DNA of 64,000 bases from Spirochaetia bacterium (GTDB lineage Bacteria; Spirochaetota; Spirochaetia; UBA9216): NCBI GenBank assembly GCA_965140585.1, contig OZ223269.1, positions 416,001 to 480,000 of the forward strand, read 5' to 3'. Positions 4,238 to 48,076 of this stretch are shown piece by piece (the stretch's first letter is position 1; every line of letters starts with the position of its first letter). Below the pieces are notes generated by a model. It was not told the origin of the DNA, did not search any database, and worked only from the letters and a program-made list of their open reading frames with translations. The translations under genes were made by a program, and so were the position numbers.

Positions 4238-5419
<1,182 letters not shown>

Positions 5420-8500: not shown

Positions 8501-11500
8501 TTTGAAAGAATTTGAGCTTTTTTTTAAAAATATGCCGAGTACCAATAAAGCCGCTTTTGTTATTATTCAACACCTGTCTACAAATCACAAAAGTATCCTC
8601 GCGGATATTTTAAGCCGTTATTCAAATATGGAAACACATCAGATTGAGGACGGTATGAAAGTCGAACCGGGGAAAGTATACATTATTCCGCCTAATAATC
8701 TGGTTTTTCTGGAAAATGATAAACTAATTCTGAAAAAACGCTATGATAAGCCTATCGTAAACCAGCCGATTGATGTTTTTTTTAATTCTTTAAAAGAAAA
8801 TAATGCCAGACGTTCAATAGCTGTAATTCTTTCAGGAACAGGTTCTGACGGCTCAGTTGGAATTAAAGCAGTGAAACAAGCAGGAGGGCTTACGTTAGTA
8901 CAGCAGCCGGACACTGCTGATTATGATGGTATGCCAATAATTGCAATAAGGACCGGTCTGATTGATTATGTAATTGCTGTTTCTGACATGCCTGAGGTTA
9001 TCCTTGAATATATAAAAAATGATTTTAAACAGGCTAAATTAATATCGGACGATGAGAATACGGAAAAGGAAATAAATCAGATTTTTGAAATTATTAAAAA
9101 TCATACAGGTCACGATTTTTCAAATTATAAACGTAATACAATAATCAGGATAATTGAAAGGCGCCTCACCGCCAATATAATGGGTAATCTGTCATCATAC
9201 ATTGATTTTTTAAAAAAAGAAGAGCCTGAAATTAAATTGCTTACAAAAGACCTTTTGATAAGTGTAACAAGTTCTTTTAGAGATACAGATACTTTCACTT
9301 ATATTGAAAGAAGTGTCATTCCCGAAATCTTCACGGATAAACAAGGTTGTACTGTTAGAGTCTGGGTTCCCGCCTGTGCAACAGGCGAGGAGGCGTATAC
9401 ATGGGCTTTGATGCTCAAAAATTACATAGATGAGAATGATTTGGAAAATGAGATTCAGGTTTTTGCTTCTGACATTGATACAGAGGCTTTAGATAAAGCC
9501 CGGGAAGGTTTGTATTCCGAGAATATTGTTTCAGATGTACCTGTAAAAATTCTGGAAAGATATTTTATAAAAGAAAGCCGTGGATTCAGAATAAAAAAAG
9601 CAATTCGTGAAACTGTAATATTTGCTGAACAGAATCTTGTGCAGGATCCCCCGTATTCAAGACTGGACATAATCAGCTGCAGGAATCTGCTTATTTACCT
9701 TGATAACTATCTTCAGTATAAGGCAATATCAATATTCCATTATGCTTTAAATAGCAACGGATGTCTGGTTCTTGGAAATTCTGAAAGTCTGGGAAATTCG
9801 GCTAGATTTTATAAGGTGGTAGATAGAAAAAATAAAATTTTTCGAAAAATTGACAGCAGTGAAATGGTGGCTAAGGTATGGAATATGAAAGGCAGAACAG
9901 TTAACTGGATGATAAAAAGACTTTTAAGGAACCTATTTCAGAAATTGTAAAGGATTTTGTTCTTGAAAAATTTGCACCCCCGGGAGTTGTGATAGATGAG
10001 CAGGGTACCATGGTGTTCGCCCTGGGGAAAACCGGGAATTATCTTGAAATTACAACCGGTAATGTAACCAATAATATAACTAAAATGGCAAGAGAGGGGA
10101 TTAAGTTTCCTCTTTCTAATGCTATTCGTAATGCAAGAAAATCAAATTCAGAAGTAATTGTTCACAATGTTAAATTGGATATCAACGGGATATTGATATT
10201 ATAGTCTCTCCATTAAGCTATCAGCAGAAAGATACGAAACTTTTTTTTGTAGTTTTTAAGACTGTGGAACCCTTCAGCAAACAATTGCTGGAAAATAATA
10301 TTAATATACCTGATACATCCGCCATTTTTGAGCTTGAAAAAGAGCTGGCTGAGAAAGAGCAGTATCTTCAGCATACTATCGAAGAACTGGAAACTACTAA
10401 TGAGGAATTAAAATCCTCTAATGAGGAAGCCCAGTCAACTAATGAAGAGTTGCAGAGCACTAATGAAGAACTGGAAACATCCAAGGAAGAGCTTCAGTCG
10501 GTTAATGAAGAACTGACTACAACAAATAATGAGCTTTCGCTGAAACTGGATGAACTTAACAGATTAAATAGTCAGCTTAATAACCTTCTCTCTGCTACAG
10601 AAATTGCAACAATTTTTATAGATAAGGAGCTGAAGATCTTTAATTTTACTCCTGCTATTTCTATCATCACTGAACTACTCATTTCCGATATCGGGCGCTC
10701 AATTAAACAGTTTACCAACAATCTGAAATATAAAAATCTTATACTGGATATTAACTCAGTGCTGAATACTTTAATACCAAAAGAATCGGAAGTTGAAAGT
10801 GTTGACGGCAGATGTTTCTGGATGCGCATTATTCCATACCGTACTATCGATGATAAAATAGAAGGAGTTGTGCTTACTTTTACCGAAATTACCAGGCGTA
10901 TTGAAATTGAAAAGGCCCTGAAAGAAAGCGAAGAAAAATACCGAGAGACCTATGAAAATTCTCCAGACTCGATAATCATCCATGATCTTGATATGAATAT
11001 AGGTGATTTGCAAATATTAAATGGATTTAACGCAACTTTAAAATATCAGAATTATATAAAAAAGGACAGAACAGCGGCGAATTTGAATTTATCAGTAAGC
11101 AGGGTGACAGGAAAACAGCATTGTACAGAGCAATTCGTGTTCATAAGGATTTTAATGTAAGCATGCTTTTTGATATCACAGAAAGAAAGAACGCAATGCA
11201 TGAGCTTAAGGTAAACCAGCTGTTCCTCCAGAAAGCGCAGGAGATTGGAATAATAGGGACCTGGCATCTAAATCTCGAAACTAATGTACTCTTATGGACA
11301 AAGGAGAATTATAAAATATTCGGTATTAAAGAAAATACACCAATCAATTATGAACTTTTTATAAATTGCGTGCATCCTGAAGATCGGGTTTATGTTGATG
11401 CTGAATGGAAAAAAGGCATTGATAAAAAATATTATGATATTGAGCATCGGGTTGTAAGCAATGGTGAAATCAAATGGGTCAGGGAAAAAGCCGATTTTGT

Positions 11501-12302
11501 TTTTGATGATTCGGGAGCCCCTGTCGAGGCCTTCGGCGTTACTCAGGATATTTCCAAAAGTAAAGAATATGAACTTAAATTGAAAGAATATACAGAGCAG
11601 TTAAGTATAATGAATCAGGACAAGGATGATTTTATTTCAATACTTGCACATGATCTTAAAAATCATCTCCATGGTCTTGTAGGCATTTCAAATACAATTT
11701 TAAAGAATTTTGACAACTTTGAAAAATCGAGTATTAAAGAGTATATGAATATGATTCATGAGTCAGCAACAAAGACCAAAAATCTGCTGCTTCAGACACT
11801 TCAATGGGTGAACCCTGAAACAAATGTACTTAAAGAGCAGAAAACTGAATTTTCAGTTTTGGAAGCAGTAAACGCTGAATTGAATCTTTTAATGCCGGTT
11901 GCTGAAACTAAAAATATCAGTATTTCAACGAAGGTTGAACCCGATTTGTTTCTGTATATGAACAAGGGAATTTTTGATGTGGTTACACGTAATATTATTG
12001 GCAACGCAATAAAATTTACACCCAGAGACGGACGAATTGAAATCAGAGCCATAGCAAAGAAAGAGAAGACTAAAATCAGTATTTCCGATACGGGTGTCGG
12101 GATGACAGAGGAAAATATTGGAGATCTTTTCAAATCCACTTTACGTAATTTCAGGCATGGGACTGATGATGAAGAGGGTACCGGACTTGGATTGAGGATA
12201 TGCAACAAACTTTTAAAAACAATAAACAGCAGGATTGAAGTTCAAAGTTCTCCCGGAAAAGGTTCTACTTTCTCATTTTCAATTTCGAATCAATATGAAT
12301 AA
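8499..12302 (+). pseudogene. fragmented CheB-CheR-PAS-coiled coil-PAS-histidine kinase fusion
   Basis: Four ORF pieces: 8502-9950 (CheB QHL/GTGSDG; CheR ACATGEEAY/CRNLLIY), 9989-10204 (PAS), 10264-11160 (NEEL heptads + PAS), 11121-12302 (PAS + AHDLKN HisKA + HATPase). Frame breaks near 9900, 10200 and 11010. The N-terminal GxSxGG of CheB is missing. Confidence 0.85.
10399..10536 (+). repeat. 21-nt period coding repeat (NEEL heptads)
   Basis: AATGA(A/G)GA at 10399, 10420, 10441, 10462 and 10504; coiled coil typical of CheB/CheR fusions. Confidence 0.8.
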
Positions 12303-12593
12303 AAATTATAAAAATGTGAGATCAAAATCCAGGATCTGGGAAATAAACACTGCATTGCTCTGGCCTGAACCAAGCCTGACAGTTTTTGCTTCAGTCATTA
12401 ATGCAAAAAATCAGGGTATACAGATCTTCTTGACTATGGTTGCGGATCAGGCAGGCATACATTACAGATACGCCATATTGATGATTGTCTTATTGAAGGC
12501 CGTATCCAAGCAGGCAAACACTACTTAGTTCTATCAACAAAAAAGCTGCCAGTCAAAGGCAGCTTTTTATATTTTAAAAGTTATCAGTTCTAA
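12295..12593 (+). pseudogene. remnant of class I SAM-dependent methyltransferase
   Basis: Motif I TDLLDYGCGSGRHT at 12420-12461, out of frame with the upstream ATG 12295 (MNKNY..LLWPEP); far too short for a full domain. Confidence 0.6.
12540..12568. terminator. bidirectional intrinsic terminator
   Basis: AAAAAGCTGCC-agtcaaa-GGCAGCTTTTT. Confidence 0.85.
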
Positions 12594-12959
12594 TTACTTC
12601 ACTTCAGAAACTGTCAGTACATTCTTGTCAGGATCATAAAACTTAAGCATCCGCATATCCTGCTCGGGGAAATCCACTATATCACCGTAAAGTGTAACTT
12701 CTTCGGCAACAAGGTGAGCCTTGAATGCATCTATGTCTTCTATACCGAGTGTCAGAAACTCGTTGACCGGGTAGGTTCCTTCCTTGCTCCACTTGTTAAC
12801 TGCAAGGTAGGTGTTGGTTGTTCCCGGAACCGCAAGTTCAGTCCATCCGTCAGATTCAAATGCTTTTTTGAAGCCTAAAATTGCAGTATAAAAATTAATA
12901 GTTTTTTCAGGATCTCTTGCCCATACATAAGAGATGATGTTTTTATAGCTAAGATTCAT
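12594..12959 (-). CDS. VOC (glyoxalase/bleomycin resistance) family protein
   Basis: RDPEKTINFYTAILGF...FYDPDKNVL pattern, 121 aa, AGGAG RBS. Confidence 0.85.
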   Translation of the reverse strand: MNLSYKNIISYVWARDPEKTINFYTAILGFKKAFESDGWTELAVPGTTNTYLAVNKWSKEGTYPVNEFLTLGIEDIDAFKAHLVAEEVTLYGDIVDFPEQDMRMLKFYDPDKNVLTVSEVK

Positions 12960-12993
12960 TCTAACTCCTTTACTTCATTCATATTCCTGTATA

Positions 12994-14229
12994 TCAGGTA
13001 GGGTAGATTACATTGATGACATTGTCAATTTTTTTCAGTTCAGATTCAAGGCTTTTTAACTGATTTTCGGATAAAGCCTCTGCCTTTGATATTTTCTCAA
13101 GCTTCTTAATTATTGTGTGTACAGCATCAAAACCCTTGCCCAGTGAAAGATCTTTATCAAGCTGCTCTGAAAAGGCGGGATTGATACTATCAATCAGTTC
13201 TCCGGCTGCGATGCTGTCTTCTTTTCCGCCGCCTTTTACCGAATCAATAGCGTTTCTAAAATCATGCAGGATTTTAACCGTCTTATTAAAATGCTCTTCG
13301 GTATAATTCAGCTTCTTCCGGTAATGCCGGTAGGTGAGGAAAAAACGGATTTCTTTCCAGGAGTGACCCTTTTTTACAAGGTCTTCAGGGTAAACGATAT
13401 TGCCCCGGCTCTTGGACATGGAAATTCCGTCAACTACCAGGTGTTCGCCGTGCATGTAGTAGTTTGCATAGTCTTTACCGGAATATCCCTCCATTACTGC
13501 TATATTGTAATCATGGTGGCGGTAAATATTATCAATACCTCCACAGTTTATATCAACCTGATCTCCAAGGGTCATTATTACAATGGCTGGATCCTGAATA
13601 TTCCAGGAAGGACGCCCTTTTCCTATTTCTGTGTCCCAGACAGGCCCGTATTCTTCTCCGTCTGCATGCCACAGTATGAAATCACCTAGGTTCCACCTGT
13701 TACCGTTATAAGTGTCACGACGGAAACGCCTTTTCTCTTTAGGCCAGCGCTTCATATCAAGCTGAAAAAGTTTTCCGAAATTATCAATTTTCAATGGATC
13801 GAAAAAATAATCACCGTCAAGTTCATAGGCAATTCCCTTCTCAACAAGGGTTTTAATAATTTTTACTGTGGAGTCAATGCTTTCTGTAGCTGGAATGAGG
13901 TGTTCCGGCATAACAAAATCAAAGCCGTCCAGACTGTCTCTGAATATAGCAAGCACGTCGCCCGTAAGCTCGTGAACTGCAACTCCCTTCTTTTTAGCTT
14001 CCGAGATGGTTTTATCTTCAATGTCGGTAAGGTTCATCGCCCGTTCAACATGGTAACCGCTGAACTTGAGATACCTTACCAGCAGATCTTCATAAAGAAA
14101 GGTTCTGTAGTTGCCAAGATGAGCTTTCTGATAAATTGATGGTCCGCATGTAAATATTTTTACGTTTTTCCCATTCCTCGGCCTGAATTCCTCAAGCTCC
14201 CTGGCCATGGTGTTATATATTTTAAGCAA
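12994..14229 (-). CDS. cysteinyl-tRNA synthetase paralog lacking the anticodon-binding domain
   Basis: CGPSIY..HLGN (HIGH), NLTDIEDK, DFILW, GRPSWNIQD, GGIDNIYRHH, SMSKS, HYR; ends at 411 aa. GAGGT lies 8 nt before the TTG. Confidence 0.85.
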   Translation of the reverse strand: MLKIYNTMARELEEFRPRNGKNVKIFTCGPSIYQKAHLGNYRTFLYEDLLVRYLKFSGYHVERAMNLTDIEDKTISEAKKKGVAVHELTGDVLAIFRDSLDGFDFVMPEHLIPATESIDSTVKIIKTLVEKGIAYELDGDYFFDPLKIDNFGKLFQLDMKRWPKEKRRFRRDTYNGNRWNLGDFILWHADGEEYGPVWDTEIGKGRPSWNIQDPAIVIMTLGDQVDINCGGIDNIYRHHDYNIAVMEGYSGKDYANYYMHGEHLVVDGISMSKSRGNIVYPEDLVKKGHSWKEIRFFLTYRHYRKKLNYTEEHFNKTVKILHDFRNAIDSVKGGGKEDSIAAGELIDSINPAFSEQLDKDLSLGKGFDAVHTIIKKLEKISKAEALSENQLKSLESELKKIDNVINVIYPT

Positions 14230-14251
14230 TGTTCATAACCTCGTTTCTATG

Positions 14252-14280
14252 AATATATACAAAAAAAACTCCAAAGTCGA
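14252..14280 (-). promoter_or_regulatory. putative sigma70 promoter of the CysRS-like gene
   Basis: TCGACT-17-TATATT on the minus strand. Confidence 0.5.
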
Positions 14281-14363
14281 TATAAAAAGAAAGATTAAGA
14301 GCTTTGGATAATTACGTACTGTATTACTCGAAAAAAAAATATATAAGCGTTATACTAATCGTC

Positions 14364-14978
14364 ATGGGAAGAATTGAGATACTTAAAAAACATTACGAAC
14401 CCAGAATTGAGAAATTCAGTGAAAACTCAAAAATCCTTGACTGGGAGAGCCCCGAGGCTCAGAAAACAAGGTTCAGTATTCTTACTGATAATATAGATTT
14501 GAACGGGAAATCGATACTTGATGTAGGCTGCGGCTGCGGAGACCTTCTGGACTGGCTGAAATCCATTGATGTGAATGCTGATTATTTCGGTGTTGATATA
14601 CTGAAGAAAATGACTGACAGGGCATCAGAACTGCATCCGGAAACTGTATTTGCGGCGGCGGATATTTTTGACGGGGGCTTTAAGTCAGAGGATGTATTTG
14701 GAAAGCCCTCTTTTGATGTTACCTTTGTGTCCGGCATTTTTAATCTGAATGCAGGAAATAATGAAGCCTTTCTAAGGGCTGCAGTACCCGTTCTTGCGGC
14801 ACTGGCAGATAAATACTTTGTTTTCAACCTTCTTGATCCGGCATCTCCTGACAGGGATGAAAATTATTTCTACTTTGAACCTTCCGAGGCAGAAAAGCTT
14901 GCATCGGCTTTTGCAGGTTCTGTAAAAATAATAAGCGGATATCTGTCAAACGATTATACCGTCATAACTGCCAAATAA
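14364..14978 (+). CDS. class I SAM-dependent methyltransferase
   Basis: ILDVGCGCG, YFGVDI, FDVTFVSGIFN; ATG 14364 preferred. Confidence 0.88.
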   Translation: MGRIEILKKHYEPRIEKFSENSKILDWESPEAQKTRFSILTDNIDLNGKSILDVGCGCGDLLDWLKSIDVNADYFGVDILKKMTDRASELHPETVFAAADIFDGGFKSEDVFGKPSFDVTFVSGIFNLNAGNNEAFLRAAVPVLAALADKYFVFNLLDPASPDRDENYFYFEPSEAEKLASAFAGSVKIISGYLSNDYTVITAK

Positions 14979-14987
14979 GGAGTAAAT

Positions 14988-15812
14988 ATGTCTGTATTCA
15001 ACCTTGCACTAATCCAGATGCTTGTAGAAACTTCAAAGGAAAAGAATCTTGAGCATGCAGAGAAGATGATAGACTCAGCCGTGGAATCCGGTGCCGATGT
15101 GGTAGTCCTTCCAGAAATGTTTAATTGCCCCTACGATAACTGCTGTTTTTCCGATTATGCGGAAACTGATAACGGAAAAACAGTAAAAAGATTATCACGG
15201 CTTGCAAGTGACTATAAAATAGTTCTTATCGGCGGTTCCATTCCTGAAAAAGCTTCTGACGGTAAAATCTTCAACACCTGCTTTTGTTTCAACAAGGACG
15301 GTGATCTTATCGAAAGACACCGGAAACTTCACCTTTTTGATGTTGATATTGAGGGCGGAATCAGTTTTCATGAGTCTGAAACGCTCAGTCCCGGAAACAG
15401 GGTAACGGTTATTGATACTGAGTTCGGTAAAATCGGGGTTGCTATCTGTTTTGACATCAGGTTTGCCGAAATGTTCCGCGAAATGGCGATCCAGGGTGTT
15501 CACACCATTATCGTTCCCGGTGCATTTAATATGACAACCGGGCCTGCACACTGGGAGCTTTCATTCCGTATGCGGGCGGTGGATAATCAGGTCTTTATGG
15601 CTGGATGTGCACCAGCCCGAAATCACGATGCCGGATACCTATCCTGGGGCAATTCACTGATAACCGATCCCTGGGGTGATGTTATGGATTCGCTGGATGA
15701 GGAAGAGGGAATTTTAATCAGGGAAATAAACACTAAAAAGGTCTACAGCTACAGAGAACAGCTTCCTATCCTGAAGGGATTCAGAAAAGACTACAGCGGA
15801 ATTCTGATGTAG
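14988..15812 (+). CDS. carbon-nitrogen hydrolase (Nit2/omega-amidase-like)
   Basis: E-K-C triad: LPEMF, HRKLHLFD, ICFDIRF; TGPAHW, RAVDNQ. Confidence 0.92.
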   Translation: MSVFNLALIQMLVETSKEKNLEHAEKMIDSAVESGADVVVLPEMFNCPYDNCCFSDYAETDNGKTVKRLSRLASDYKIVLIGGSIPEKASDGKIFNTCFCFNKDGDLIERHRKLHLFDVDIEGGISFHESETLSPGNRVTVIDTEFGKIGVAICFDIRFAEMFREMAIQGVHTIIVPGAFNMTTGPAHWELSFRMRAVDNQVFMAGCAPARNHDAGYLSWGNSLITDPWGDVMDSLDEEEGILIREINTKKVYSYREQLPILKGFRKDYSGILM

Positions 15813-15835
15813 AATCTTCTGCCGTTAAAGTCGTT

Positions 15836-16114
15836 TTATTTCTCTGTTCCGGTCAACCGTTCGAATTCCGGAGATTTTTTCTGATAAGCATTCCTGTAAA
15901 CATGCATCAGCCTTTCCTTTTCATTCGGACCGATTTTACGGTATTCGCCGTCAAGAGAATTTACAGGAACCAGTGTGAGTATTCTGACTTCTTTCAGCGC
16001 GTTTTCCGGATCCCTTGTATAATGTCCAACCAGATCATGAAGATCGTCAAAATTTTCAAGGAATTCTACATATTCATTAGTACCGAGATCGAAAATATCA
16101 CCCTTTTCAGGCAT
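15836..16114 (-). CDS. hypothetical protein
   Basis: 92-aa ORF with GGAG RBS that fills the gap between neighbours; no motif recognised. Confidence 0.65.
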   Translation of the reverse strand: MPEKGDIFDLGTNEYVEFLENFDDLHDLVGHYTRDPENALKEVRILTLVPVNSLDGEYRKIGPNEKERLMHVYRNAYQKKSPEFERLTGTEK

Positions 16115-16184
16115 AAGGTCTCCTCTGAAGGATTTATAATAACAGCATAAACAGAATATCTGCTTTGCGCAATAAAAAGGTGCT

Positions 16185-16212
16185 TTGAACTGTGGGGTTT
16201 TTAATTTATAAT
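16185..16212 (+). promoter_or_regulatory. sigma70 promoter, leaderless arrangement
   Basis: TTGAAC-16-TATAAT, 7 nt before ATG 16220, no SD. Confidence 0.65.
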
Positions 16213-16219
16213 CTGACCC

Positions 16220-16681
16220 ATGATTCCAGCTGATATAAAAGAATTCCTTACGGCAAACGGACTCAAGGCTATTGAGTTCGAGGAAGGAAGTACACCAACA
16301 GCAGAAACTGCTGCATCGATGCTGAAAGTAACAGTAGGGCAGATAGCAAAATCGATATTATTCAAAGGCAAGGATGGTAACTTTTACTTGGTTGTCTGTG
16401 CCGGAGATAAGAAGATTTCTACAGCAAAACTGAAGGCTTTAACAGGAACAAAGACAAGGATGGCAAATGCCCAGGAGCTCTATGACGTTCTTGGTTTCAG
16501 ACCGGGTGAGGTCTGTCCGTTTCGTAAAACAGATATCCCTGTCTATATTGATGTAAGTCTGGCGGAATATGAAACAGTATATCCTGCCGCAGGCAGCGAT
16601 TCGTCAGGTGTTCCTGTATCCTTCGCAGGACTGCTGGATATTACGGGTGCTCTGGAATGCGATGTTACTTCAGAAAGCTGA
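16220..16681 (+). CDS. YbaK/ProX-family aminoacyl-tRNA deacylase
   Basis: TPTAETAA, QIAKSILF, GxxxGxVCPF, VYPAAG. Confidence 0.88.
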   Translation: MIPADIKEFLTANGLKAIEFEEGSTPTAETAASMLKVTVGQIAKSILFKGKDGNFYLVVCAGDKKISTAKLKALTGTKTRMANAQELYDVLGFRPGEVCPFRKTDIPVYIDVSLAEYETVYPAAGSDSSGVPVSFAGLLDITGALECDVTSES

Positions 16682-17976
16682 CACTGCTTCTTATTCTCAC
16701 GCTGTTTGTCTTTTCATGTAACGGCAGCCCGGGAATAATTTTTCCTGATTATTCTTTTTTATCTGAATCATCACCTTCAACAGATGCAGTAAGAGTTCTG
16801 CATAATCTTTATTCCAGCGAACTGGATGCTTTAGATGAGCTGGTCGGAAGGTTTAACAATGAGAATGAATACGGGATTCGGGTTGTTCTTGAAAAAAGAT
16901 CGGTAAATTTTGTCCCGGAAGATTCAAATATTATTCTGACTTCAGCCTCTGAATCTGAAGAATTACTTAAGGCCGGAAAAACTTCTGAGCTTTCTCCCTT
17001 TTTTTATCATCCTCTCTGGGGAGAACAGTTCGGTAGAATGGGTTTTTATGCTGTCGCCAGGGGACAGACCGATTACTGGGAATGGAGCCGAAAGATAAGT
17101 TCTGTACCACTGCTAATGGATGCAGGTGTAATGATTATCAATGAAGATCTTCTGGCAGATTCCGGATATGGAAAATTCCCGGGAACATGGTTTTTCTTCA
17201 ACAGGCTTGTTAAAAAAGTCAGCCGATTGACAGGTTTCCCGGCTTTCGGAATAGATCTAAATTCACAGTCATATGTATCTTTAATAAACGGAAGGGGCGG
17301 TTCCATCCTTCGCCCAAATCGCTCAGCATACAGTTTTAACAATCCAACCGTTATTGGTGCCGTCAGTCTGATTAAAAGTCTCATCAAAAAAAATGCAGTA
17401 CTCTATCCTGCTGCCTCTTATGAGAATCAAACTTCCTTTATTTCAGGAAATATGCTCTGTTCACTGACAGGAATAGAAGGGTTAAAATACTACAATACTG
17501 TGCTGAAATCAGTTAATCCTGAACTTGACTGGTCGGCGGTTCCTGTTCCATCAAGACGTCTGGGAAACAGTTTTGTGCTTGATGCCGACTTGACCGCAGC
17601 TATTATGAAAGGTGAGGCCGGAGAACAGCTTTCTTCATGGATTTTTATACACTGGCTTACGGAAGAGTCGCAGCAGATCTATCTTTCTTCTCAAACCGGA
17701 AAATTGCCTGTAAAAGCTGATGCATTAAAAGCTGTACTGTCAACAGACCCGGCTGATTCCGGGCTTCCAAAGCAGTGGTATGAGATTGCCGGAATAATTC
17801 TGAACTCACATAAAGAGCCTGCTCCTGTTTTTGCAGATTATCCTGCTGTAGCCGGAAAATTTGAGAATATGATTAAGAGAAGTTTTGACGGCGGATTTGT
17901 AATTATTGAGTCCGTACGGCTGAACCGTGAGGTTGCAAAATACCGCAAGTCTTTGGAGGGGGATGCTGCAGAATGA
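16657..17976 (+). CDS. extracellular solute-binding lipoprotein (family 1, UgpB/sugar-like)
   Basis: Lipobox LFVFSC; LVGRFNNEN..GIRV, INEDLL..G, SWIFIHWL, TGKLPV; divergent. Confidence 0.7.
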   Translation: MRCYFRKLTLLLILTLFVFSCNGSPGIIFPDYSFLSESSPSTDAVRVLHNLYSSELDALDELVGRFNNENEYGIRVVLEKRSVNFVPEDSNIILTSASESEELLKAGKTSELSPFFYHPLWGEQFGRMGFYAVARGQTDYWEWSRKISSVPLLMDAGVMIINEDLLADSGYGKFPGTWFFFNRLVKKVSRLTGFPAFGIDLNSQSYVSLINGRGGSILRPNRSAYSFNNPTVIGAVSLIKSLIKKNAVLYPAASYENQTSFISGNMLCSLTGIEGLKYYNTVLKSVNPELDWSAVPVPSRRLGNSFVLDADLTAAIMKGEAGEQLSSWIFIHWLTEESQQIYLSSQTGKLPVKADALKAVLSTDPADSGLPKQWYEIAGIILNSHKEPAPVFADYPAVAGKFENMIKRSFDGGFVIIESVRLNREVAKYRKSLEGDAAE

Positions 17977-18290
17977 AAAAAACTCTTGTATTGTCAAATA
18001 CCTGGCGGCCCGAAAAAAATGAAGAACACTGTATTAAGTGCGGTGAAAAAATTGAATACAAATGGGGCGAGTACTCCTTCCGCTACTATGAGAAGAAGGA
18101 TAAATCGGATATCGCTCCAATGTGTAAGGCCTGTGCTTCAGATCTTAAAAATACCGATCCTCAGGTAAGAGTAATCAGCAGGTCCATGATTATGGAATTA
18201 ATCAGTTTGAAAAATTCCGCCTGGAAAACTCAAAAGTATAAATGGTCAGCTGGATCTAAAGTCAGTACGGATGATAAAGAGAAGACTTAG
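17973..18290 (+). CDS. hypothetical protein with two CxxC pairs
   Basis: CIKC...CKAC; ATGA overlap with the upstream gene. Confidence 0.65.
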   Translation: MKKTLVLSNTWRPEKNEEHCIKCGEKIEYKWGEYSFRYYEKKDKSDIAPMCKACASDLKNTDPQVRVISRSMIMELISLKNSAWKTQKYKWSAGSKVSTDDKEKT

Positions 18291-19517
18291 AGCTGCCAAT
18301 CCTGCAAGAACGCCGAATAATATCCTGTATGAATCAGCTCCGGTATATGAAAGGACATCAAGCATTTTACCGCTGAGTACTGATATTCCAAGGCTCAACG
18401 GAAGCATGAGTACTGGTGCTGCAGCAAAATGACTTGTCGCATCAGGCTTTCCTGAAATAATTTTGATTGCCGGAGCATAGATCAGGCTTCTGATCGATCT
18501 TGCTAAACCCAGAAGAAGACTGGCAGCCAGAAATCCCGCAATATTCGTGCAGAAAATCAATATAATGATCCCGGGCACACTGAAAAAACGTGAAAGTATA
18601 CATTTATTTTTCAAGCTGAGCAGATTAAAACTTCCCAGTAATACATTTGAGATAATCTGTCCAAGGAAATAGACTCCGACAAATATACCTGCTGCAGCAG
18701 CGGCCGAGATGCCGTGGTACTGAACAGCATAATTAGCATAGAATGAAAGCACGGTGATAATAGCATAGAGCTCAAGATCTCCGAAAAGGAATTTCAGAAG
18801 GTTTCTGTCTTTAATAATAATCTCGATGGAATTAAGAATATATTTAAAAAAACCGGTTCCCATTGCGTCCCTGGTTTCGGCAGAGTCCTCTGTTTCAGGT
18901 TCTTTTGTGAGCAGAAATCCGAATGAACCGAAAAAGAATAAAGCGCCGCAGAGCAAAAACAGTATCGTAGATGATTCAGGTGTAACCTCTTTGTCTGTAA
19001 AATATCCGGCAAGCAGGAAACTGCTTATAAGTCTTCCGGCTGTCTGAGCAATAAACATCACTGAAAGTGCCGGAAGGACCGTTTTCTCTGAAAAAAGTTT
19101 AACCAGATAATTCTGCCAGACCGGAAGAACCATTCCAATTCCGAAATTGAAGACTCCGTAACTTATAAAAAATACAGGCAGAGTGTATTTTGAAAATCCG
19201 GATGTTGCTAATAGAAAAAATCCAAAACCTGAAATAAAGATAGCAGGGTAAAGATGATAAAGCAGTACCGAGCGTCTTTTTTTGGTCAGTGCTCTGGTTC
19301 TGTAGGCAGACACCAGACCGAAAAAGGCCTGACCAATGAAAAAGAATCCGGGAACAAAGGAGATAAGAAAACTGCTTGCACCAAGTTCTTTTAAAAACAG
19401 CTGGAGGAATGTAGATTCAAGAACAAGAGGCAATCCGAGTCCCCAGAAAAATTCAACTGTAGAGATCCCGGCTGTATTGAGTGTAAAATTCCCGACTTCA
19501 TGTTTGTGGTCTTTCAT
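18246..19517 (-). CDS. MFS transporter
   Basis: About 12 hydrophobic segments, FLKELGASSFLI. Start reassigned to ATG 19517 because the longer ORF overlaps the HAD gene. Confidence 0.8.
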   Translation of the reverse strand: MKDHKHEVGNFTLNTAGISTVEFFWGLGLPLVLESTFLQLFLKELGASSFLISFVPGFFFIGQAFFGLVSAYRTRALTKKRRSVLLYHLYPAIFISGFGFFLLATSGFSKYTLPVFFISYGVFNFGIGMVLPVWQNYLVKLFSEKTVLPALSVMFIAQTAGRLISSFLLAGYFTDKEVTPESSTILFLLCGALFFFGSFGFLLTKEPETEDSAETRDAMGTGFFKYILNSIEIIIKDRNLLKFLFGDLELYAIITVLSFYANYAVQYHGISAAAAAGIFVGVYFLGQIISNVLLGSFNLLSLKNKCILSRFFSVPGIIILIFCTNIAGFLAASLLLGLARSIRSLIYAPAIKIISGKPDATSHFAAAPVLMLPLSLGISVLSGKMLDVLSYTGADSYRILFGVLAGLAALSLLFIIRTDFRSS

Positions 19518-46615: not shown

Positions 46616-46666
46616 AGCGGTATTCTATCTGAAATTCCGTGATATTACCATATGCCGGAGGCAATT

Positions 46667-48076
46667 GTGCAGATTCGACTTTATAACACACTGGGCCGTG
46701 AGCTTCAGGAACTTAAACCTGTAAAAGAGGGTAAAGTCGGACTATACTGCTGCGGCCCTACTGTTTACAACTTCGCTCACATAGGAAACCTTAGAACCTA
46801 TATCTTTGAAGATATCCTTAGAAGAGCTCTTGAATATGCAGGGTTTAAGGTTAATCATATCATGAACATTACCGATGTCGGCCATCTGACCGGTGATACT
46901 GATGACGGCGAAGACAAGATGGAGAAAAGTGCCAGGGAAACAGGAAAAACTCCTGAAGATATTGCCGCTTTCTATACCGAGGCTTTTTTTAACGATACTC
47001 AGCGGCTTAATATTCTGAAACCCTCAACATCATGTGCGGCGACAGACCATATCGGCAACATGATAGGCCTCATCAAGCGGCTAGAAAAAAATGGATTTAC
47101 CTACGTTTCCGGCGGAAATGTATACTTTGATACCTCAAAGTTCCCGTCCTATGGCGAGCTTGCACTGCTTGACAGACAGCAGCTTCGCGACGGCGCAAGA
47201 ATTGAGGTTGATACAAACAAGAAAAACCCCAGAGACTTCGTTCTCTGGTTTACCAACTCAAAATTTGAGAATCATCTCATGCAGTGGGATTCCCCCTGGG
47301 GAAGCGGCTATCCGGGATGGCATATTGAATGTTCGGCTATGAGTATGAAATACCTCGGAGAGACCTTTGATATCCACTGCGGAGGAATTGACCACATTCC
47401 GGTTCACCATACCAATGAAATAGCCCAGTCAGAGGCTGCCACCGGCAAGAAGTGGGTCAACTACTGGGTACATGGCGAGTTTCTGCTGATGGATAAGCAG
47501 AAGATGGCTAAATCTGCCGGTAATTTTATTACACTCCAGACTCTTGTTGACAGCGGTTATGACCCGCTGGATTATAGATATTTCTGTCTCGGCGGGCACT
47601 ACAGATCACAGCTTGTATTCAACTATGAATCACTTGATGCTTCAAGGAACGCCAGAGTTAATCTGAATGACAGGGTAATTGCTCTTAAATCGGCCGTAGA
47701 GCCTGCAGAGGTCAATGCAATTTCCGAATCTGCTGCAAAATATCTTACCGATTTTGACGGACATCTTGCCAACGACCTGAATGCTCCGCGTGCTCTTTCT
47801 GAGATGTGGCAGCTTCTCAAGGACAGCAGTATAAGTGAGCAGGACAAGCTTACAGCAGTACTGCAGATGGACAGAGTGCTCGGTCTCAGGCTGGATGAGC
47901 TGGAAGCTGCACTCCCGGAGCTGACAGAAGAGGAGGCTGCGCTTGTACAGCAGAGAGAGGATGCCCGAAAGTCAAAAGACTGGCAGAAAGCCGATGAAGC
48001 AAGAGATAAGCTGCTTTCCATGGGTATAATCATAAAAGATACCCCCCAGGGGCCGAGATGGACAAAAAGAGTGTAA
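46667..48076 (+). CDS. cysS: cysteine--tRNA ligase (canonical)
   Basis: CGPTVY, HIGN, PGWHIEC, HHTNE, KMAKS, anticodon domain ([15 protein letters not shown]); GTG start after GGAGG. Confidence 0.97.

Follow-up and report, generated by a model that had tools for sequence, protein, structure and literature searches.

Several paralogs of the aminoacyl-tRNA synthetases (aaRSs) carry out unexpected chemistry, among them MshC, GluQRS, the cyclodipeptide synthases and the amino-acid:carrier-protein ligases, and for the paralogs of cysteinyl-tRNA synthetase (CysRS) a 2022 review gives, in the passages cited here, two functions only, CysRS* and MshC (PMC9437257). MshC, the Cys:GlcN-Ins ligase of mycothiol synthesis, is described as working without tRNA (PMC5370406). 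CysRS*, reported by Mukai et al. in 2016, is encoded by a truncated cysS* gene downstream of selC*, a tRNA-Cys(UCA) gene, and selB* in some Desulfobacterales; in the sections cited it is proposed to charge a tRNA, that of selC*, for the recoding of UGA as Cys, the native protein being inactive in E. coli and a variant that mimics it being functional (PMC5389517). Zur-regulated CysS2 proteins of beta- and gamma-proteobacteria are said to keep the zinc residues and to lie in COG0523 clusters (PMC2770081, PMC10882993). GluQRS (YadB) is a truncated class I paralog that still activates its amino acid, which then ends up on a modified base of a tRNA (PMC9437257). Here we describe a gene from a Spirochaetia bacterium (assembly GCA_965140585.1; positions 416,001 to 480,000 of contig OZ223269.1, a stretch of 64,000 nucleotides hereafter called the window), which encodes a 411-residue CysRS paralog with the motifs WNIQD and RHHDYN. 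At the level of sequence, our comparisons show that it is identical with none of CysRS, MshC, CysRS* and Zur-type CysS2. Our preferred reading, to which we attach roughly even confidence, is that the protein belongs to a new clade of CysRS-derived, predicted adenylating ligases that have a re-specified amino-acid/metal pocket and acceptor entrance and act beside a normal CysRS.

The open reading frame (ORF) list of the window gives the gene a TTG start, and this start is common to the orthologues in four related loci (L001, L002, L003 and L019), as is the N-terminus LKxYNT. Pfam tRNA-synt_1e matches residues 16-317 (E 2.1e-70), and the motif positions were checked by translating the exact coordinates, which bears out the first-pass annotation of the window in describing an intact CysRS-fold frame; both class I ATP motifs (HIGH- and KMSKS-type) are present, as HLGN and SMSKS, and conserved family-wide. 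The GC content of the gene is 41.7% and that of the window 42.5%. The zinc ligands of E. coli CysRS we take to be C28, C209, H234 and E238 (Newberry et al. 2002). An HMMER alignment of the paralog with this enzyme (1li5) was gap-free at the compared sites, and equates C28, T68, W209, D213, H238 and N242 of the paralog with C28, T68, W205, C209, H234 and E238 of E. coli. In E. coli numbering the substitutions are H206N, E208Q, C209D, P233R, E236D, N237Y and E238N, and the exchange of the second Cys ligand for Asp and of the Glu for Asn, noticed earlier from the motifs, was thereby confirmed. Among 103 full-length CysRS representatives C28, H206, E208, H234, H235 and E238 were each found in all 103, C209 in 97 and P233 in 99. 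This zinc/thiol pocket is not matched by the paralog, where C28, W205 and H234 are kept and H206N, E208Q, C209D and E238N are fixed (180-182 of 182 members). C209D alone is not diagnostic, since Asp stands at this position in six of the 103 full-length CysRSs as well; judging from the alignments, the diagnostic set of the clade is H206N, E208Q, P233R, N237Y and E238N. The six CysRSs in question (WHIED; P0220, P0227, P0229, P0247, P0259 and P0270) have Cys (two) or Ala (four) at the N237 position, and may have a relocated or altered set of zinc ligands in an otherwise ordinary CysRS.

A protein homology search returned more than 120 homologues of about 400-440 aa with 49-77% identity to the paralog. 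Where a name was given it was 'class I tRNA ligase family protein' or 'cysteinyl-tRNA synthetase', and the named sources were Spirochaetes, Desulfobacteraceae, Desulforhabdus and Salinispira pacifica. Among representatives at 50% identity there was a step in score between the family (336-411 bits, 41-51% identity) and ordinary CysRSs of about 470 aa (from 292 bits, 38%). When one genome per species was scanned over 185,579 species, using two family peptides as query, 348 matching stretches were obtained and 333 confirmed. The 80 of these that were kept come from Spirochaetota (including metagenome-assembled genomes (MAGs) of Leptospirales) and Desulfobacterota, one record being labelled archaeon, and the Desulfobacterota carriers include an isolate, Desulfoferrobacter suflitae DRH4. 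Within Spirochaetota the distribution is patchy, with carriers in 19 of 301 sampled genomes and 8 of 124 genera.

Conservation was counted over 182 distinct members aligned to the family profile (45-77% overall identity). N210, D213, C229, D233, H238, H239, D240 and Y241 were found in 182/182, R237 in 181, and Q212 and N242 in 180 each, and the same full invariance holds in the CP loop for W162, P163, D172, T173, Y174, G176, W179, N180, D183 and F184. C28, G29, H37, G39 and N40 were present in all 180 members covering the site and T68 in all 181, and the residues of SMSKS were kept in 181 (M271), 182 (S272), 182 (K273) and 177 (S274). In total, invariance extends to some 30 positions of the active site and CP loop. 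Of 18 divergent 50%-cluster representatives or fragments, 11 retain all the sampled sites that they cover; seven have T or V in place of N242, a few show a change at C229 or at a single site of the CP loop, and the rows P0131 and P0198 are garbled. Compared with the L001 orthologue the dN/dS was 0.088 at a dS of 0.17. From its sequences the clade is under purifying selection and not a decaying copy, and with the substitutions themselves conserved the idea of a drifting pseudogene can be set aside.

To place the family we made maximum-likelihood trees, which have midpoint roots only and include no MshC sequences. A single branch, with SH-aLRT 100 and a stem length of 0.73 substitutions per site, separated all 23 paralog rows from the rest, and a second tree repeated the clade (15/15 rows). 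The WNIQD/RHHDYN proteins are, on these trees, monophyletic and vertically conserved; whether WNIQD/HHDYN is conserved in a distinct clade had been raised as a question from the single sequence, and the homologues show that it is, with WN[IV]QD and RHHDY in 182 of them. The nearest branch joins the paralog clade to short proteins of 405-413 aa (28 rows, SH-aLRT 99), the rows of short CysRSs being P0138, P0139, P0148, P0154 and P0260, all without the C-terminal domain. P0148 and its close relatives carry the NCBI name cysteine--tRNA ligase and come from MAGs of Micrarchaeota (Micrarchaeia), Hadarchaeota (Hadarchaeum) and Methanobacteriota; the next relatives of P0148 are full-length archaeal CysRSs. 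The C-termini of the short archaeal CysRSs (about 407 aa) and of the paralog fall in the same alignment column, and both have a D-x-Y element in the CP loop. Unlike the paralog the short CysRSs keep WH/SIEC and HHENE, that is, intact zinc ligands, and they are far more basic (mean net charge +33, n=5). Since these nearest relatives combine the same truncation with canonical ligands, the truncation is older than the change of the pocket. P0154 has N210, Q212 and a T at 242 (E238 lost), yet a Cys at 213, and looks like an intermediate form. The truncated archaeal relatives are probably working CysRSs and, we infer, the sole CysRS of their genomes.

The window also holds a canonical cysS, 32% identical to the paralog, with the CysS_C domain (PF23493) at residues 422-470, a domain that both Pfam and the alignments fail to find in the paralog. 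The first-pass annotation had put this gene at 46667-48076; the gene is there, and its called start is the ATG at 46652, 15 nt upstream of 46667. With the cysteine--tRNA ligase equivalog model TIGR00435 the paralog scored 300.7 bits, below the curated cut-off of 340, and with the MshC equivalog TIGR03447 it scored 210.3 bits, below the cut-off of 485.1. When 22 carrier genomes were searched with the cysS model, each gave the paralog at 238-317 bits and a separate gene at 452-569 bits. The paralog is never the sole CysRS of a carrier, as a canonical cysS stands alongside in 22/22 genomes tested. The paralog resembles CysRS (TIGR00435; 1li5, 1u0b and 8qhp) in its fold (TM 0.82-0.87, 31-38% identity), in the HIGH/KMSKS-type motifs, in the equivalents of C28, T68, W205 and H234/H235, and in having the SC-fold and the helical bundle; it differs in the missing CysS_C, the fixed pocket substitutions, the rebuilt and basic CP loop and the score below the curated cut-off. 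Taken together, the scores, the fixed substitutions and the monophyly of the clade speak, as the earlier view did, against both a spare CysRS and a standard MshC.

An AlphaFold2 (AF2) model of the paralog had a mean pLDDT of 86.7, and Foldseek gave TM values of 0.87 and 0.85 against the CysRS structures 8qhp and 1u0b and of 0.79-0.81 against MshC (3c8z, 8hfm and 8hfn). The helical bundle is present and confidently modelled, and in the part of the AARS Online classification cited here this domain of CysRS is the anticodon-binding domain (PMC11580382). The earlier statement that the protein has no anticodon domain is therefore correct for CysS_C, missing in comparison with the window cysS, and incorrect for the helical bundle, which is retained. 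Over the shared region the mean net charge was +7.3 in the family and -7.4 in canonical CysRSs, and in the CP loop alone +4.8 and -2.8, respectively (MshC was not part of the charge comparison). What had been taken for a basic insert is indeed a basic CP loop, although the remodelled loop is just 3-4 residues longer than the canonical one and not a 12-residue insertion. At the mouth of the active site, residues 170-180 of this loop have a pLDDT below 50; as the loop is at the same time invariant, this fits a loop that orders upon partner binding.

The first-pass annotation also made the enzyme independent of tRNA, with a non-tRNA acceptor. This we find unsupported, because the nearest relatives share the truncation and have intact zinc ligands, the helical bundle is kept and the family is more basic than canonical CysRS; the same truncation is seen in CysRS* and in the archaeal CysRSs of about 407 aa. 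The suggestion of another metal or amino acid in the pocket is possible, as far as the alignments go. G29 and T68 are presumably the contacts to the alpha-amino group in CysRS, and together with W209 they would hold this group and flank the side chain. Both are kept in the paralog, together with the ATP motifs (HxGN and MSKS), the GGxD element, W209, C28 and H238, and the intact ATP motifs and alpha-amino-anchoring residues make an adenylating enzyme plausible, as had been proposed. Altered recognition of the side chain is suggested by the loss of three residues universal in CysRS and the gain of Arg237 and Tyr241, and a thiolate-holding Cys/Asp/His metal site is possible since six of the 103 CysRSs have Asp at the C209 position.

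We propose that the paralog would bind ATP and an L-alpha-amino acid and form an aminoacyl-adenylate. The side-chain/metal site would be re-specified, with Cys28, Asp213 and His238 left as a possible three-ligand metal site. The activated residue may be Cys in another binding mode or some other small polar amino acid, and would be passed to an acceptor docking at the rebuilt, invariant, basic and aromatic CP loop. The acceptor would be anionic, with RNA (the acceptor end of a tRNA, or a modified nucleoside as with GluQRS) ranked before a small molecule with acidic or phosphate groups, and the paralog would perform a job outside the reach of the canonical CysRS. GluQRS/YadB is here a functional analogy and not a relative, being GluRS-derived and without the whole anticodon domain. 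Taken furthest, the proposal would place the clade beside MshC and CysRS* as a third functional type of CysRS paralog, in which a non-Cys amino acid, or Cys by non-canonical chemistry at Cys28-His238-Asp213, is attached to RNA or an anionic metabolite, and in which this site could hold another metal or even be a thioester-forming triad; this we put forward tentatively, as possible though somewhat short of probable.

Several points weigh against this interpretation. Ligase activity, metal and substrate are predictions for every member of the family, and homology is the sole basis for the geometry of C28, D213 and H238. As an indication of RNA binding net charge is weak, and the invariant Trp, Tyr, Asp, Asn and Arg of the CP loop would suit a sugar too. 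The spread over 19 of 301 Spirochaetota genomes looks accessory and not translational. The genome of the bacterium itself has no unusual tRNA; its 46 tRNAs include one tRNA-Cys (GCA) and no UCA/SeC tRNA. Finally, MshC, with the same architecture, serves a small molecule according to the text cited (PMC5370406). We rank the options with a ligase for an anionic acceptor, RNA first, as favoured, an MshC-like small-molecule route as a close second and a CysRS isoenzyme third.

An MshC-type ligase, which we consider unlikely without dismissing it, would activate Cys on a Cys/Asp/His zinc site and amidate an amino sugar or other metabolite, to give a low-molecular-weight thiol or similar compound in Spirochaetota and Desulfobacterota of anoxic, partly sulfidic habitats. 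The likeness to MshC (TIGR03447; 3c8z and 8hfm) is clear in the architecture, a CysRS-derived catalytic core of about 410 aa without C-terminal domain, and in the structural match (TM 0.79-0.81). C28, T68, W209 and H238 are kept, Cys binding may survive in view of the Asp at the C209 position of 6/103 full-length CysRSs, a sugar could be bound by the invariant aromatic residues, Asp and Asn of the CP loop, and the patchy, accessory distribution would be in line with such a role. However, the sequence lies nearer to CysRS, with 202-205 bits for the two best CysRS chains in the PDB against 130 bits for MshC and a hidden Markov model score for MshC of 210 against a cut-off of 485, and E238, H206 and E208 have each been substituted. 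MshC has both of the Cys ligands. The two also differ in their hosts, MshC belonging to Actinomycetota (Atlas clusters) and the paralog family to Spirochaetota and Desulfobacterota.

The surroundings of the gene bear on the same question. ORFs were called in 80 related loci, of which 70 passed the ORF filter and 10 were dropped, and 69 downstream and 69 upstream neighbours (138) were scanned with Pfam. No conserved operon partner was seen among these 138 immediate neighbours of the 70 loci, and neither glycosyltransferases nor deacetylases recur as partners in the vicinity, which speaks against an MshC-type pathway; the lack of a conserved partner may be typical of aaRS-like or tRNA-modifying genes. 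Some neighbours have a thiol/detoxification flavour that would favour MshC-type chemistry, namely the VOC protein with a weak FosA-like match (21.6 bits), the Nit-family gene and an AhpC upstream in one locus (L073), but these hints are all below curated cut-offs and limited to one lineage. In the genome of the bacterium itself, no BshA, BshB1 or BshC was found above cut-off (the models for MshA, MshB and MshD were not searched), and its one PIG-L gene is part of a nonulosonic-acid sugar cluster. A bacillithiol-type pathway was set aside for this genome on these grounds. As a separate observation, locus L087 (G000:C7:449000-465000) is a cluster of 16 genes on the same strand, 11 with a Pfam assignment and five without, that encodes, among others, NeuB, a PglD-like acetyltransferase, a DegT aminotransferase, a UDP-GlcNAc 2-epimerase, a cytidylyltransferase, a PIG-L deacetylase and a flippase, and is most likely a nonulosonic-acid (legionaminic/pseudaminic-type) sugar pathway.

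A less probable alternative, which we regard as rather doubtful, is an auxiliary CysRS isoenzyme, charging tRNA-Cys by means of a different metal site (zinc-sparing or sulfide-tolerant) when the canonical zinc enzyme fails. It would agree with the short archaeal proteins annotated as CysRS that are the nearest relatives, with the retained helical-bundle anticodon domain, with the canonical copy found alongside in 22/22 genomes, and with the titles of some carrier records, which mention, for example, a sulfidic cave, sediments or anaerobic reactors and point to anoxic or sulfidic origins. Second copies of CysRS under zinc starvation also have a precedent, in the accounts cited, in the Zur-regulated CysS2 (PMC2770081, PMC10882993), which like the paralog is a CysRS-like gene beside a housekeeping one. 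The comparison fails at the zinc ligands, as Zur-type paralogs are described as keeping them (PMC2770081), whereas the present clade alters residues found in 103/103 true CysRSs, and no Zur/COG0523-type genes were seen among the 138 neighbours. In addition, the stem branch is long (0.73), the paralog is never the sole CysRS, and the CP loop, to which recognition of the first acceptor base pair by CysRS is ascribed (PMC5389517), is wholly rebuilt.

That the protein is a non-catalytic relic or regulatory pseudo-enzyme, binding ATP, amino acid or RNA and ligating nothing, is very improbable: two of the four presumed zinc ligands are replaced, the partner and pathway searches gave none, and the inactivity of native CysRS* in E. 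coli (PMC5389517) indicates that such paralogs are hard to assay, but the dN/dS of 0.088 and the invariance of the catalytic motifs and about 30 positions over 182 members fit an enzyme better than a binding protein.

CysRS* is truncated at the same point, occurs in Desulfobacterota and is, like the paralog, a second cysS-like gene beside the normal one. We searched 17 genomes of Desulfococcaceae (G001 and G006-G021), the family of one carrier (L052). Positions 5415-8780 of L085 (G015:C6) hold a tRNA-SeC-like gene (tca) followed by genes for a 671-aa SelB homologue and a 415-aa cysS*, which is the arrangement of Mukai et al., and L086 (G017:C147) has a tRNA-SeC-like gene of the same kind at 4339-4430. 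This CysRS* (P0272) keeps WHMKC and PHHENE, scores 421.7 bits with PF01406 compared with 237.9 for the paralog, and nests in canonical CysRS (13 canonical rows plus CysRS*, SH-aLRT 100). By comparison, no SeC-like or Cys tRNA was found near the paralog in 60 loci, the only tRNAs being one tRNA-Gly and one tRNA-Met, and there was no EF-Tu/SelB domain among the 138 neighbours. Position behind selC*/selB*, intact zinc-ligand motifs and a place inside the canonical CysRS branch thus characterise CysRS* and are all lacking in the paralog; from the missing selC*/selB* context, the changed zinc ligands and the separate clade, we rejected an identity of the two as having next to no probability. A class I stand-in for SepRS was also rejected, as the genome of the bacterium has no SepRS or SepCysS.

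A word search of the open-access literature, in which the motif strings were not used as queries, found no description of the clade, which is so far undescribed within the literature searched. With its sharp signature, strong selection and more than 180 distinct members it is a clean, testable candidate for a further function of CysRS paralogs, and carriers are within reach, as one is the isolate D. suflitae DRH4 and the family is named by NCBI in S. pacifica. The clade shows, position by position, how a zinc-thiolate site for amino-acid selection can be rewritten. In annotation, the family should not carry the name cysteine--tRNA ligase. Were the third paralog type to hold true, it would mean a new aminoacyl modification of RNA, or a new thiol/cofactor pathway, in Spirochaetota and Desulfobacterota of anoxic, partly sulfidic habitats.

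Table. Features of the paralog, its neighbours and the canonical cysS, in window coordinates.
Feature	Position	Strand	Remarks
CysRS-derived paralog, WNIQD/RHHDYN clade, 411 aa	12994..14229	-	Rossmann catalytic domain, CP domain, SC-fold, helical bundle; without CysS_C
Cys28, homologue of E. coli zinc ligand C28	14146..14148	-	180/180 members
HLGN, HIGH-type ATP motif, residues 37-40	14110..14121	-	H37, G39, N40 in 180/180 members covering the site
Remodelled CP-domain loop RWPKEKRRFRRDTYNGNRWNLGDF, residues 161-184	13678..13749	-	Alignment, charge, predicted model
WNIQD, residues 209-213, vs canonical WHIEC	13591..13605	-	D213 in place of zinc ligand C209
RHHDYN, residues 237-242, vs canonical PHHENE	13504..13521	-	H238 (= H234) kept, N242 replaces E238
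SMSKS, KMSKS-type ATP loop, residues 270-274	13408..13422	-	Translation, family alignment
VOC/glyoxalase-family gene	12594..12959	-	34 nt downstream of paralog, same strand; 6/69 loci, all close relatives
Class I SAM methyltransferase	14304..14978	+	Divergent, 74 nt upstream of paralog; orthologues adjacent in 7/69 loci
Canonical cysS, same genome, 474 aa	46652..48076	+	WHIEC, HHTNE, KMAKS, CysS_C; comparator, outside the new family

Among the 69 downstream neighbours the commonest were an ABC ATPase (9), glyoxalase (6) and GFO/IDH/MocA (6) proteins, and among the 69 upstream ones DHO-dehydrogenase-like proteins (8), S-adenosylmethionine (SAM) methyltransferases (7), CNNM/CorC (5) and aldo-keto reductases (4). 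Orthologues of the SAM methyltransferase adjoin the paralog in two subclades. Of 301 Spirochaetota genomes 62 have the methyltransferase, yet this is true of just one of the 19 paralog-positive genomes, and the gene was rejected as a partner for this lack of co-occurrence. Beyond it in the window, at 14988-15812 (+), lies the gene of the Nit-family carbon-nitrogen hydrolase; its highest-scoring NCBIfam model, deaminated-glutathione amidase, gives 159 bits (cut-off 500). In L003 and L004 this gene adjoins the paralog on the upstream side. A protein with a YbaK/ProX-type aminoacyl-tRNA editing domain (PF04073, 1.7e-28) is encoded at 16220-16681 (+), 2 kb from the paralog, and is not among the conserved neighbours of the related loci. 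No riboswitch or T-box was detected in 20 loci at the gathering threshold, or in window positions 9000-19000 at E up to 0.1, and PADLOC gave no defence-system match for the paralog. On the other side of the gene, the four successive ORFs at 8502-9950, 9989-10204, 10264-11160 and 11121-12302 (8502-12302, +) look like pieces of a single large CheB/CheR-PAS-histidine-kinase protein, which, as judged from their translations only, could be a frameshifted gene or assembly errors.

No fused form of the paralog was found, a weak search among longer proteins giving only an ordinary PALP-CysRS fusion. In 16 of the 17 Desulfococcaceae genomes a CysRS match lies inside an open frame of 741-843 aa (P0271, P0129 and P0186). 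In P0271 (769 aa), the protein whose domains were looked up in precomputed Pfam, a PALP (cysteine-synthase-type) domain is fused to a full CysRS, which suggests that a cysteine synthase-CysRS fusion is common in Desulfococcaceae.

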